Virus record (IMG/VR): IMGVR_UViG_3300045135_000695
Location: 1 to 34,742 of that record
Length of the DNA: 34,742 nt
DNA from: a virus
Lineage: Duplodnaviria; Caudoviricetes
Reading direction: 5' to 3' (one strand)
Shown here: positions 17,643 to 32,841 of the stretch, one piece after another
Layout of the letters: the number at the start of each line of letters is the position of its first letter
How positions within the stretch are numbered: the first letter of the stretch is position 1
Notes under the pieces: model-generated
What the model saw: only the letters and a program-made list of their open reading frames with translations
Told to the model about the DNA's origin: nothing
Database searches by the model: none
Position numbers and translations under genes: made by a program

Positions 17643-18554
17643 CTATAACAATTCAAATATAGACGTAGGGTTAACTACACCTGTCTTACGAGACTGACCA
17701 ATATCAAACAGACCTCTAAGCACATCCACGCCAACTTGCGGAGTGCCGAACTCTACAAATCCCTCATCATCTGTAATGATAGGTAGAATAGAGCCTCGCT
17801 GCTGACCTTGTGGTAATGCGAACTTATCTTCAAACTCAGCCATTCGCTCTGCACGGTTGAACTCGTTAACGCCCATTAGGCCTGCGGCTGCTGTTGGCAA
17901 TTTGGCAGACTTCATTAGCCCAACTTCACCTTTCTTTGCTGGATTAAGCTCTGCAAATTTTGAACGCAAATCAGCCTCATCAAATACGGCTACATGAGTT
18001 GCTGGCTTATCGTAATGACCTACAGCGTCATCAAGGTTTAGGAACTTTACACCTTTAAGCCCATCAGACTTAGCTTGGTCGATCGTCTTGTTAACAAAAT
18101 CAGATACTCCCTGATCGTTAAACGATTGCCCCTTCATATCTACAACCTTTAGGCTTTCATCATTTGGTACATGAATAGGCATTATATTCTGCCCACGCAT
18201 TCTTGCCTGTGGGTCTGACATAAACTGAGCCTCTAACTGCTCGGCCTCAATAATCTTTTGATCATACAAATCCCAATCACCCTTACGCTCAGCAGCATCA
18301 GCTTCCTTTAGCAGCTTAACCACGCGATTAGTGGTAGCACTATGATCCGCATAACTTCTTGCTGTAAACTCTGGGTCATCACTAAACCAAAATGCCTTTT
18401 TAGCGCTTGCCGCTTCTGTGTTAGAGCCACGCATACCCTTAGAGAACTCTTGAATATTAGACGCGGTACCATGATAGTAATCATCAGCAGACAGACCCAA
18501 AGCATCAAGCAGGCCTTTTCGCGCCTTAGTAATAGTTGGAATAGTCTTTGGCAT
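17643..18554 (-). CDS. ADP-ribosyltransferase-like protein (ART-PolyVal-like)
   Basis: YHGT...EF, FWFSDDP..A.SYA, G.NIMP, AK.DG..GV.F, VAVFD...LRSKFA motifs. Likely start ATG 18554 after GAGG. Confidence 0.7.
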   Translation of the reverse strand: MPKTIPTITKARKGLLDALGLSADDYYHGTASNIQEFSKGMRGSNTEAASAKKAFWFSDDPEFTARSYADHSATTNRVVKLLKEADAAERKGDWDLYDQKIIEAEQLEAQFMSDPQARMRGQNIMPIHVPNDESLKVVDMKGQSFNDQGVSDFVNKTIDQAKSDGLKGVKFLNLDDAVGHYDKPATHVAVFDEADLRSKFAELNPAKKGEVGLMKSAKLPTAAAGLMGVNEFNRAERMAEFEDKFALPQGQQRGSILPIITDDEGFVEFGTPQVGVDVLRGLFDIGQSRKTGVVNPTSIFELL

Positions 18555-18620
18555 GAATAACCTCAATAATTAAAAGCCGCCACGTAGCCGAACAATAGGT
18601 GACAGGCGTATCAAGGCCAA

Positions 18621-23217: not shown

Positions 23218-23452
23218 CATCATTTGCCAAGTTATCCATTAAATCCAGCTTTGCTAACTCTATAGCACCAAGCATAGTGGCTAGGTCTAAGATCACGCCA
23301 CCGCATCCCATATTGCCATCCTTGCTTAGTGTTACAATGACAAACTGATTCCTATCTAAGTCAGTGTCATCTAATGCCTCGTATTCATCTGCTAACATGC
23401 GCAGCTTCTGTGGTAGTGTGTTACCGTTATTTCCTAGTTTGGATATACTCAT
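23201..23452 (-). CDS. Hypothetical protein
   Basis: LR.LADE....LGAIELAK..L; ATGA-coupled to the upstream gene. Confidence 0.65.
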   Translation of the reverse strand: MSISKLGNNGNTLPQKLRMLADEYEALDDTDLDRNQFVIVTLSKDGNMGCGGVILDLATMLGAIELAKLDLMDNLANDVELMH

Positions 23453-23859
23453 GCAAATGCCCTCGATGGTTTAGATAGGCCCATTCTTGCCTCTAGATTC
23501 TTTTTGCGCTCACTGGCTTGCTTGTACTTGCGCCAGTCGGATAGGCTCATATCCTTGTTTTGCTTTGCTTCCTGTTCATACATGGCTGTATAGAAACGAT
23601 CTTTTACTAGCTGTTCCTTATCATGGCGGCTGATGTATGTGCTAGGCTTGTTGTATTCGTCTTTCTCTACTATACCGCGATCTTCTAGCTCTTTGATGAT
23701 GTGTGAGAACTGGCAACCGTGTCTACAGTGGTAAAGCACATCGTACTTTTTGCCTTTACTAAGTGTAAATCGGTCTGTTCCTCCACAGATAGGGCATGGC
23801 CCTGCAAATGTTCTACCTTGTCTCTTTAATCCTAGTTGTTCTGCTATACGTTCAATCAT
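23449..23859 (-). CDS. Primase zinc-ribbon domain protein lacking a catalytic domain
   Basis: GPCPICGGTDRF...CRHGC; only 136 aa, with no TOPRIM or AEP motifs. Confidence 0.8.
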   Translation of the reverse strand: MIERIAEQLGLKRQGRTFAGPCPICGGTDRFTLSKGKKYDVLYHCRHGCQFSHIIKELEDRGIVEKDEYNKPSTYISRHDKEQLVKDRFYTAMYEQEAKQNKDMSLSDWRKYKQASERKKNLEARMGLSKPSRAFA

Positions 23860-25337
23860 GCTGCTCTCCTTTTTGAGTTCTTAATATTCTGACTTGTTAT
23901 AAACTTTCTCACCTCATCACTGATACCACCAGAGACAGAGTGAGGCTTAACCTTGTTAGGCCAGACTGAGTATCTTTCCTTATATTTATGTGCTGCCCAA
24001 CCTTGACTATACCCTTTAATGGAAGCCCATGCCATAAGCTCTGAGTAGAATTGCGCTTTATCTTCCATGCTGGTTTTACGGTTGCGCTTCTCTGCTGCTG
24101 TTAGCTCTACCAGTATTTCATCAGTTGATTCTAGCTGCTGCTTAATGGGTATCTCATAACCACAGGCACAGCGTAGACCTACAAACTGACCGTGACACTG
24201 TGGGCATTCTTTTACGTTAGGTTCTTTATCCTTGTCCTTAGTCAATGACTTCTCATCATATCGCTTTTCACCGTCATCTAAACTGTCAGGGACGATATCT
24301 TCACTAAAGCCGTGCCTCAAAGTATTGCCAGCGTGATCGAGTATTACAGCGTACTCTTTGTCGGGATGCGATCTGAGAACACGCCCAATGCGCTGGATTA
24401 TCGTAATTTTTGACGCGGTGGGATAACAGTCCACAAGACAAGAAACTTTTGGTGCGTCATAGCCTGTGTTCAACAACTGGGAACAGGAGAGAATCATAAA
24501 TTCACCCTTATCATGCGCCTTGTACAGCATTTGGCGTTCCTCATCATCCATATAGCCGTCTATATGCTCTGCTGATATACCAGCTTCATTGAACTGTCGT
24601 ACTAGCTCTTTACTGTGGCGAATGCTTGGAGTGAAGGCGATAGTCTGCCTACCCTGACCATATTTTAGCCAGTTCTGGATAATGTCACCTGTTAGCTTAT
24701 CGTCTTTCTCAATGCTTTCTGACAGGCTCTTAGGGTCATAGTCTGTACCACCAGTGGGTAGAGCGCGTTTCTTTACACCCTTTAGATTAACCTTAGCGCC
24801 ACCGTAGTATTTAGCTGGTGCTAGATAGCCCTGATCTTGTAGCTGGCGAGTAGTGATAGGCACTAGCAGATCATCAAAATACTTACCTAAACCCTTGCTA
24901 TAAGGAGTAGCTGATAGACCAATGAATGGTACGTTGTTGTATGTCTCCATCATGGCGATATGGGCTTTGTATAGTACCTGACATTCGTCGATAATACATA
25001 GATCAAATATAGGCATATGTGGCTTACGAGCTAGTGTTTGAATGGATGCGATCTGCACTGGTGCGCTGTACTTGGTGCGTTCATGGCGGCCCTGAATCAC
25101 GCCTACCTCGATACCGAAGCGATCCATAGCCTCTAAAGATTGCTGTACTAGCTTGATACGGTCACAGACGAACAAGACTCGCTTGCCTTTCTCTACTGCG
25201 TTAATGGCTAGCTTAGCTGCTATTACTGTTTTGCCTGCTCCTGTGGGTGCTGCTAGAACAGGATGCTTATTGCCTGCTCGCAATGACTGTCGGAGCATAT
25301 CAATAGCGCGTGTTTGATGTGGGCGTAACTCAAGCAT
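23856..25337 (-). CDS. Superfamily 2 (DExD/H-like) DNA helicase with C-terminal Zn finger
   Basis: LRPHQ, PTGAGKT, IIDECQ, GLSATP, GYDAP, QRIGRVLR, CPQC..C.CG. Real start is probably ATG 25337 (GGGAGG RBS). Confidence 0.93.
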   Translation of the reverse strand: MLELRPHQTRAIDMLRQSLRAGNKHPVLAAPTGAGKTVIAAKLAINAVEKGKRVLFVCDRIKLVQQSLEAMDRFGIEVGVIQGRHERTKYSAPVQIASIQTLARKPHMPIFDLCIIDECQVLYKAHIAMMETYNNVPFIGLSATPYSKGLGKYFDDLLVPITTRQLQDQGYLAPAKYYGGAKVNLKGVKKRALPTGGTDYDPKSLSESIEKDDKLTGDIIQNWLKYGQGRQTIAFTPSIRHSKELVRQFNEAGISAEHIDGYMDDEERQMLYKAHDKGEFMILSCSQLLNTGYDAPKVSCLVDCYPTASKITIIQRIGRVLRSHPDKEYAVILDHAGNTLRHGFSEDIVPDSLDDGEKRYDEKSLTKDKDKEPNVKECPQCHGQFVGLRCACGYEIPIKQQLESTDEILVELTAAEKRNRKTSMEDKAQFYSELMAWASIKGYSQGWAAHKYKERYSVWPNKVKPHSVSGGISDEVRKFITSQNIKNSKRRAA

Positions 25338-25593
25338 TTTGATACACCTCCCTAAGTAGATTAAACACGCCACGCATACGCTTTTGATTGTATCGTGGGA
25401 TAAACAAACCAGTTGAAGGCCAGTAATCAATCTTACCTAGCTTACCTGTTACGATTAAGTGCGCCCCATCGTTCTTAGACTCAAACCATACACCCTTATC
25501 TTTCAGTATTGCGGTTGACTCCTTAGTGTTCTTTTTACGCTTCTTTTTCTTGTACTTGGTCATGGCTTTAAAAATTTCTGCTGAATCGCCCAT
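25330..25593 (-). CDS. Small basic phage protein
   Basis: KYKKKKRKK, N.G.HLIV, DYWPSTG, RGV.NL; AGGAG RBS. Confidence 0.75.
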   Translation of the reverse strand: MGDSAEIFKAMTKYKKKKRKKNTKESTAILKDKGVWFESKNDGAHLIVTGKLGKIDYWPSTGLFIPRYNQKRMRGVFNLLREVYQNA

Positions 25594-25623
25594 TAGACTA
25601 TCTCCTAATTTTAGATATAGTTA

Positions 25624-26082
25624 CCCTTTTTTCCCTCAAAGATAGGCCAATGAGTAATTGGTTATCTACCTTCGCTGCACTTTGGCAAAGCTGACTGAAA
25701 AGCCAAACTTGGTACTAAATACCCCGACCTGCACTGCACATCGGCTTCCCTCTGGGCGATAAGTAATGCCCAAACGTGATCAAACGTACTCTAAACCTTG
25801 CAACCTTTACTAGTTTGAGGTTCCTGTTGTCAGTGGTACGACAGCGCAGGATGACGGTCACTCGGTTCTCGTATTTCTACGGCTGTCTTTAACGCCTTTA
25901 GCTAGGCCATTACTTGAGTTCAGGTCAGCAAAGATTAACACCTGACCAGTGAGAAAATGTCGATAGAATGAGGAAATGTTGACGTTACTATGTAACATTG
26001 ATAAACTAACAACAGGTCGTTAGTCGAAGTTTTCCTACTACTTTCTATCGGCTGTTGCGGAACGCCAATTCCTCACCGACCT
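25624..26082 (-). ncRNA. Candidate long structured RNA (leader or pre-primer, 'RNA II-like')
   Basis: ORF-free and starts below a TTGCAA-17-TAGAAT promoter. Hairpins include GGTCAG/CTGACC, CCTG..TGTC/GACA..CAGG, TGGGC/GCCCA, TTTGGC/GCCAAA, CCAAT/ATTGG. Ends in GAGGGAAAAAAGGG. Confidence 0.55.
25979..26007 (+). promoter_or_regulatory. sigma70-type promoter for antisense RNA
   Basis: TTGACG-17-TAAACT with extended TG; spacer contains GTTAC-tat-GTAAC palindrome. Confidence 0.7.
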
Positions 26083-26131
26083 TTCTATTCTATAGGCCTG
26101 ATTCGCTAATTGCAAGTCAGGCCTTTCTTTT
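26014..26131 (+). ncRNA. Candidate ~118-nt antisense RNA ('RNA I-like')
   Basis: Own promoter; cloverleaf closed by AGGTCG/CGACCT with two inner hairpins; then an intrinsic terminator. Confidence 0.6.
26087..26115 (-). promoter_or_regulatory. sigma70-type promoter for long RNA / replication operon
   Basis: TTGCAA-17-TAGAAT on the minus strand. Confidence 0.7.
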
Positions 26132-26135
26132 ATTT
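26094..26135 (+). terminator. Intrinsic terminator overlapping the opposite promoter
   Basis: AGGCCTGA (26094-26101) / TCAGGCCT (26117-26124) followed by TTCTTTTATTT. Confidence 0.75.
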
Positions 26136-30237: not shown

Positions 30238-30263
30238 ATGACCTCCTTATAGTTGGTTTGTGT

Positions 30264-32770: not shown

Positions 32771-32779
32771 TATACTTTC

Positions 32780-32841
32780 GCGGCTAGGTTAGCTCCCGAA
32801 AACAGGACTCATTCCCCTGCTGCCGCTACTTCTAGGAATGA
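32780..32841 (+). ncRNA. c4/c4-2-like three-way-junction RNA, copy 1, with downstream complementary box
   Basis: GCGGC/GCCGC closing stem; core TAGGTTAGCTCCCGAA; CAGG/CCTG stem; loop TCATTCC complementary to GGAATGA (32835-32841). Confidence 0.65.

Follow-up and report, generated by a model that had tools for sequence, protein, structure and literature searches.

A conserved pair of predicted facing RNAs beside the replication genes of tailed phages: a candidate antisense-controlled, RNA-primed origin

How does a tailed phage begin to copy its DNA when its genome shows neither a recognizable initiator nor a catalytic primase? This question is raised by a non-coding locus in the virus record IMGVR_UViG_3300045135_000695 (Duplodnaviria; Caudoviricetes), of which positions 1 to 34,742 (34,742 nt) were analyzed and are referred to here as the window. 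The window is a near-complete tailed-phage genome, the two ends of which overlap within an HNH gene, and the record's own estimate is 100% completeness. On the minus strand, the gene order is a Cro-like gene, NinB, NinG, small ORFs, a gap (25594-26135) that holds the element discussed below, and then three genes:

25330..25593, minus strand: 87-aa ORF, function unknown (phrog_27571), a variable gene between element and helicase
23856..25337, minus strand: SF2 helicase (phrog_16), nearest solved structures including RadD and T4 UvsW
23449..23859, minus strand: 136-aa primase-type zinc-binding domain, without the TOPRIM catalytic domain

The helicase matches UvsW with E = 5.8e-12. Among the 33 non-structural window proteins scanned, no polymerase, O-like initiator, TOPRIM primase, integrase or partition gene was found. 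The lack of an initiator and of a catalytic primase, already remarked on in the initial annotation, is thus borne out by profile scans (these 33 proteins, and the TOPRIM profile), with the reservation that profile searches of selected ORFs could miss remote initiators. Elsewhere in the window, a weak int-alpA-like Rfam match (32777-32840, plus strand; 31 bits, below the gathering score of 35.8) marks a small multi-stem motif immediately ahead of an HNH gene, and a gene with an ART-PolyVal-like ADP-ribosyltransferase domain (17643-18566, minus strand) lies between the terminase and structural genes.

The gap had been described as about 540 bp free of credible ORFs, and its longest stop-to-stop frame has 53 codons. 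A hidden ORF in the element was rejected, given this frame length (69 and 98 under stop read-through) and alignments rich in indels. Iterons were discarded as well, a convincing repeat family being absent from the gap, and no tRNA or tmRNA was found there. Cumulative GC skew, proposed earlier as a check, turns at 30245, 4 kb off, where transcription switches strand; as the skew tracks the coding strand, it is uninformative on the origin.

Two facing promoters and two overlapping RNAs are predicted in the gap. Their 5' features, together with the family labels defined further below, are the following:

26087..26115, minus strand: predicted sigma-70 promoter of the long RNA (-35 at 26115-26110, -10 at 26092-26087), position kept in relatives
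25979..26007, plus strand: predicted promoter of the short antisense RNA (-35, extended TG, -10), position kept in relatives
26012..26132, plus strand: putative antisense transcript (~118 nt) consisting of closing stem, two inner arms and terminator, from fold z-score and covariation
26014-26019 with 26077-26082, no strand assigned: closing stem P1 of a three-way junction, common to families A, B and C
26059..26072, no strand assigned: hairpin H1 with a hypervariable 6-nt loop, a candidate kissing or specificity loop
26094..26132, plus strand: intrinsic terminator of the antisense RNA, a hairpin (26094-26124) followed by a T-run

The promoters lie where they had been claimed, with TTGACG-17-TAAACT and its TG at 25979-26007 on the plus strand, and TTGCAA-17-TAGAAT at 26115-26087 on the minus strand, the -35 of the latter falling within the antisense terminator hairpin. 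Seven promoter-like sites were found in the region, against 6.5 +/- 2.5 in shuffled sequences, which is the level of chance. As pattern matches alone do no better than this, it is conservation that supports the promoters. The short RNA (26012-26135) folds with z = -4.17, and none of 200 shuffles folded as well. The cloverleaf proposed at the predicted starts keeps its closing stem (AGGTCG/CGACCT) and loses its four-arm shape, being a three-way junction followed by the terminator. An automatic terminator pattern scan found none, missing the hairpin and T-run of the antisense RNA.

Helicase searches yielded 87 viral loci with 54-84% identity, near-duplicates included, and iterated profiles defined three sequence families of the element, named A, B and C. 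The element is present in 79 of the 87 related helicase loci (E < 1e-10), and in 66 of the 68 having at least 1.5 kb of upstream sequence; in this latter set, the two loci with a helicase and no element are L064 and L086. The initial annotation had suggested comparing the intergenic regions upstream of homologous helicases, and this comparison revealed that both element and structure are conserved, with compensatory changes. In the helicase tree, the window nests inside family A, and the families mostly track clades. The 5' layout is common to all three: a promoter, a closing stem, a hairpin with a variable loop, and a facing promoter. At a fixed distance from the closing stem, a site scoring at least 8/12 was found for the long-RNA promoter in 31 of 50 elements and for the short-RNA promoter in 24 of 50, vs. 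3.7% of random positions; both counts are understated, because the stem script mislocated the helix in 9 of these elements, among them that of the window. The H1 loop shows 28 distinct strings over 50 elements, according to a rough regular expression. The intrinsic terminator claimed for the plus-strand RNA recurs as a hairpin and T-run at this place in 19/19 family A members, with very different stem sequences. It was detected in 4/22 and 2/9 members of families B and C, respectively, most members of which show no such terminator.

Some variation in the architecture was also observed. In L094 and L113, the core begins directly after a stop codon, without a 5' module. The 5' modules and 3' cores recombine (L062, G011, L094, L113, and L103), giving unmatched pairings and cores with other 5' modules or none; in L103, the core is preceded by a terminator on the sense strand. 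In L072 and L229, the linker joining 5' module and 3' core is expanded by short tandem repeats, suggesting that linker length is tolerated.

Covariation supports the predicted folds, as judged by shuffles and permutation tests that ignore relatedness, on loci that include near-duplicates. In the antisense RNA, double changes occur in 7 of 16 pairs, a value reached by none of 500 shuffles, and one inner arm keeps G-U pairs that are valid solely on the antisense strand. Outside family A, the covariance model R1 gave weak extra matches only. For the 3' core of family B, aligned from 25 sequences, double changes affect 16 of 26 pairs, again with 0/500 shuffles, and slid controls scored far lower; the G-U pairs of this core are valid solely on the long-RNA strand. 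The core also contains two pseudoknots, one of which is without covariation support because it is invariant. For family A, the covariation scan of the 3' domain is dominated by two-clade noise and was used only qualitatively. The family of conserved, predicted RNAs is real whichever functional reading holds.

The 3' core could nevertheless be read as a single-stranded DNA fold, a priming or helicase-loading signal that forms once transcription has opened the duplex, the RNA being only the opener. The helices Pa and Pb of the family B core, being mostly Watson-Crick, would suit this reading, and replication-linked motifs may act as single-stranded DNA, as the accessible part of PMC5737381 cautions. 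It is highly unlikely, nonetheless, as three positions keep G-U pairs in 17-25 of the 25 sequences, which suits RNA better, and a dedicated promoter sets the 5' end of the folded strand.

The long RNA of the window is predicted as follows, with its candidate internal elements:

25600..26082, minus strand: predicted long RNA (pre-primer candidate) of about 480 nt, with a putative 3' boundary
26031..26050, minus strand: alternative long-range helix, 5' strand, covered by the antisense RNA
25961..25976, minus strand: alternative long-range helix, 3' strand, outside the antisense RNA
25746..25752, minus strand: 7-nt G-rich direct repeat, first copy (post hoc; 2.7% of shuffles)
25631..25637, minus strand: G-rich repeat, second copy, within the G/A tract (post hoc; 2.7% of shuffles)
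25608..25623, minus strand: 3'-terminal signature ACTAT, short spacer, CTAAAA, like the family A and B ends (compared by eye)

In family A, an alternative helix can form between a purine-rich segment of the antisense target and a segment just beyond that target. This helix covaries: 15 of 15 members beat shuffles (p <= 0.01), and the members' own pairs reach -18.3 kcal/mol, vs. -15.2 for permuted ones. When the window RNA is folded as growing fragments, the alternative helix appears by 140 nt.

The 3' half of the window is less typical. A family A profile built without the window matches only 26129-25961 (E = 5.8e-8), the 3' half matches none of the A, B, and C profiles, and no relatives of it were found in sequence searches. 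The whole 489-nt long RNA folds with z = -1.54, and the seven or more hairpins attributed to it are not above chance for this sequence alone, because 8 of 100 shuffles fold as well. The G/A tract GGGAAAAA near the 3' end, stressed earlier, did not prove family-wide either (0/22 A, 3/39 B, and 5/14 C members). Contigs of one sequencing run cover part of the region and hold no informative variants. The A and B ends are alike: four bases separate two helix strands, and the tail is conserved; the window signature at 25608..25623 is a candidate RNA-to-DNA switch region. In family B, a G-rich direct repeat, with copies 70-113 nt apart, co-varies (5.75 vs. 4.62 permuted), a pattern also accounted for if one strand has two RNA partners; the repeat of family A is not significant (p = 0.14).

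The gene context bears on what the RNA pair may do. Element-first searches found a helicase in 40/49 family B loci, 66/89 family A loci (18 without, of which 11 short; 5 chance matches) and 32/46 family C loci (7 without, of which 5 short; 7 chance matches), and the element is mostly co-oriented upstream of it, ending just 5' of a ribosome-binding site. This arrangement is what an antisense-controlled leader would show, the long RNA being a 5' UTR whose fold governs Rho-dependent read-through into the replication genes, or their translation. Antisense-induced, Rho-dependent premature termination is known from P4 CI, and the refolding switch is what an attenuator needs. However, in eight loci, element and helicase have opposite orientations. 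In one of them (L069), it ends in a terminator-like hairpin, followed by a separate promoter-like site before the next gene (as seen by eye), and in a family A subgroup (L163/L179/L205/L207), it lies between divergent operons and is followed by a T-run and a separate promoter. Moreover, the first gene downstream varies freely, and no pT181-like conditional terminator is conserved on the sense strand (10/50 weak matches at scattered places, none in the window). A pseudoknotted core of ~250 nt with invariant residues would also seem to exceed the needs of a leader. The context, with its eight inverted loci and the separate promoters after some copies, favors an origin over a helicase leader. The attenuator that had been offered as the alternative is weakened by the inverted and free-standing copies and the missing conserved sense-strand terminator, and a leader function is now considered unlikely.

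Several observations concern the neighboring genes themselves. The site directly 3' of the element takes many different genes: for instance, L001 (4297-5003) and L003 have near-identical elements and helicases, the difference being an inserted methyltransferase-like gene. Some helicase homologues (P0007, P0009, and P0036) are ~765 aa long with intein-type Pfam domains. The cultured phages PS-1 and YA3 (L009:3376-4001 and L014:2247-2992) have in common a poorly coding gap of their own ahead of the helicase; this gap bears an opposite-strand terminator-like hairpin and is unrelated to families A-C. A full family B element is located between NinG and terminase genes in L136, L140, and L141, the helicase being absent from the sequence at hand. 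A search for hosts in genome collections found none: of eight matches, only one is a clear element, namely a family B core (L150:2827-3049) on a phage-like contig in an Anaerolineales MAG, possibly misbinned. One 74.7-kb record (G007; L300-L303) consists of two different phage genomes joined.

Replication proteins near the element are often incomplete or missing. The TOPRIM profile matched 5/6 cultured-phage loci, vs. 0/87 clade loci, and it did not match the window; the element occurs in none of the six cultured-phage loci, and two of these phages have RepL-like genes. Cultured relatives with a full primase are without the element. In four helicase-less family B loci, the next gene encodes a protein of 80-122 aa whose match to longer families, three of them annotated initiators, is confined to the C-terminal part. 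Where the longer protein is an O-like initiator, the match covers only its C-terminal third. One such O-like C-terminal fragment family stands alone in 112 clusters, and the core lies upstream in 6/6 of its strong loci (three lineages), vs. 0/5 weak matches, two of which are full-length initiators when the sequence is read by eye. L312 shows the lambdoid order Cro-like, HTH, element, and O fragment. DnaB is encoded in none of the five records carrying both element and O fragment. Finally, the circular genomes G001 and G006, which have direct terminal repeats, carry one element each and no helicase, and no primase, initiator, or polymerase was found in the ORFs scanned (53/72 and 30/51, respectively, the unscanned ones being mostly in structural blocks). 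G001 has an estimated completeness of only 69% despite its terminal repeats, and G006 has a ParB-like gene. In each of five whole records, the element is single-copy.

Another reading is that the 3' core is released as a stable, structured RNA acting in trans. Together with the helicase, the zinc domain, or the O-like fragment, it would form a particle that initiates replication or delivers primers, at its own or other sites. The invariant core residues and pseudoknots, the discrete ends of free-standing copies, the occurrence of the core without a 5' module, and partner proteins that have lost precisely their catalytic or DNA-recognition domains are all compatible with such a particle. Nevertheless, the neighbors of one and the same core range from unrelated protein modules to no such module at all, which speaks against a dedicated partner, and an overlapping antisense RNA directed at the 5' end of the nascent transcript agrees with action in cis; this reading is rather improbable. 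No longer or fused zinc-domain proteins were found at E <= 1e-4, which is weak evidence. A role apart from replication, in immunity, exclusion, or host manipulation, may likewise be envisaged, since antisense RNAs with variable loops also control phage immunity in P4 and P1. With the tight linkage to replication modules, the lambda O position, and no small toxin ORF conserved in the element, it is very improbable indeed.

The reading as an RNA-primed origin invites comparison with known systems. In the ColE1 pre-primer, an alternative long-range pairing is prevented by antisense binding, and an upstream G-tract pairs with the template C-tract near the origin. The element resembles ColE1 in its predicted refolding switch, the analogous helix covarying in the alignment of 15 family A members, and, loosely, in its 3' end, which recalls an invariant ori motif in 18/27 B cores. 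It differs in that RNA I forms two or three side-by-side stem-loops, whereas here, a predicted closing stem encloses two arms before the terminator, so that a three-way junction closes off the 5' end of the antisense RNA. At 400-480 nt, the predicted long RNA is also shorter than that of ColE1 and has a pseudoknotted core, and the element is carried by tailed phages, usually near an SF2 helicase and a zinc-domain gene. ColE1 makes a long RNA whose 5' end is targeted by an antisense RNA of ~100 nt, with overlapping convergent promoters and no Rep protein, according to the accessible text of PMC8683028 and PMC4555960. As far as that text goes, the likeness extends to the convergent overlapping promoters (here predicted and conserved), a predicted RNA of ~100 nt complementary to the long-RNA 5' end, an antisense terminator overlapping the long-RNA promoter, and the lack of a detected element-encoded Rep protein (33 window proteins and the scanned G001 and G006 ORFs, from which remote homologues could escape).

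At the level of primary sequence, the initial annotation saw no identity to ColE1, and Rfam and profiles in both directions came back empty. Rfam RNAI (RF00106) is detected in ColE1 itself, and not in the window or the 14 relative loci. Searched with a profile of six ColE1-type oris, 137 element sequences gave no match at E <= 10, and the search in the other direction was empty too. A resemblance of the B core to ColE1 RNA II in two motifs was dropped, as it is present in one of six ColE1-type oris. In the ColE1 record (L319:784-942), an ORF lying within the RNA II region is labeled 'replication initiation protein', probably an annotation artefact. More generally, no Rfam covariance model matched over the element at E <= 1 in the window and 14 relative loci; this holds for ARRPOF, GEBRO, PAGEV, C4, and sar, the models of which we take to be included in the Rfam library. 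Blastn against 50,697 cultured-phage records returned no match for the window and the A and B representatives, and only a 36-nt, chance-level match for C; the same result covers the c2, bIL67, and 923 oris. Plasmid blastn showed no match to the element.

Other replication systems share single traits with it. T4 has its own replisome and is not known to have a structured antisense pair at its origins. Its R-loop origins act together with the SF2 helicase UvsW (PMC2699526, in part), and the likeness lies in the R-loop initiation proposed here and in the window helicase, which matches UvsW. The lactococcal Ceduovirus c2 ori (PE1 transcript) is non-coding, lies between divergent gene blocks with two flanking promoters, exists in several sequence types, and replicates without phage proteins (PMC7150918). 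Its layout resembles that of the free-standing element copies between divergent operons; it differs in its Gram-positive hosts and the absence of a cultured-phage sequence match to the element, and an antisense RNA is not described for it in the accessible text. In the mycobacterial prophages Alma, LadyBird, and RedRock, a non-coding RNA region replaces the RepA of related phages (PMC7157519). These origins differ in being needed only for prophage maintenance and tied to parABS, and the accessible portion of that paper describes neither an antisense partner nor a structure. ARRPOF, GEBRO, and PAGEV are mid-sized structured motifs linked to replication regions (PMC5737381), and MRB plasmid replicons are named in PMC12753305; the resemblance of these, from what is accessible of both papers, is that of a mid-sized structured motif near replication genes, and the difference is that no Rfam or plasmid match was obtained. 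No description of the element family was found in the literature, subscription papers being mostly outside the search. The main text of a phage RNA catalogue (PMC10690425) has no mention of helicase or primase, and six element motifs are absent from three of its six supplements; further files may list these RNAs unnamed.

Comparison of the aligned loci shows facing promoters, an antisense terminator (family A), a 5' junction whose loop is variable, an alternative helix incompatible with part of this junction, and, for family B, a covarying pseudoknotted 3' core. The structured RNA pair thus appears real, widespread, and apparently undescribed, and a role as an origin is the most likely one. 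We put a probability of about 0.62 on the element being an RNA-primed, antisense-controlled origin, ColE1-like in its working, and not a member of the ColE1 group. The RNA-based origin with antisense control proposed at the outset has thereby gained strong comparative support, and ColE1 membership on sequence has not. In the mechanism that we favor, both the long (400-480 nt) and the antisense (~118 nt) RNAs would be made. As the long RNA grows, its 5' junction would refold into the alternative helix, unless antisense binding blocks this refolding. The folded 3' domain might then let a G-rich tract invade the template, creating an R-loop, and the long RNA, annealed again near its 3' end to the template from which it was transcribed, would serve as the primer for DNA synthesis. 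The leading strand could begin through host RNase H and Pol I, or by direct extension. Neighboring proteins would act downstream of initiation: here, the RadD/UvsW-like helicase along with the zinc-domain protein; elsewhere among the phages, the O-like C-terminal fragment or host proteins alone. Copy-number control of this kind is hard to rationalize in a purely lytic phage.

More tentatively, at somewhat less than even odds, the elements may constitute an undescribed, widespread class of tailed-phage replicons. A pseudoknotted RNA would have replaced protein initiators more than once, standing in, depending on the lineage, for the catalytic domain of the primase, the DNA-binding half of a lambda O-like protein, or every recognizable replication protein, and swappable antisense modules would provide control and incompatibility of the ColE1 kind without descent from ColE1. 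In many environmental phage genomes, neither an initiator nor a primase or polymerase is seen, and the element family offers a testable answer to how their replication starts, as well as a marker for locating such origins. It also represents a large pseudoknotted RNA that is not in Rfam. If the reading is true, antisense-controlled RNA priming, known from small plasmids, extends to tailed phages by way of an apparently unrelated RNA, and it could supply protein-free origins with tunable compatibility.
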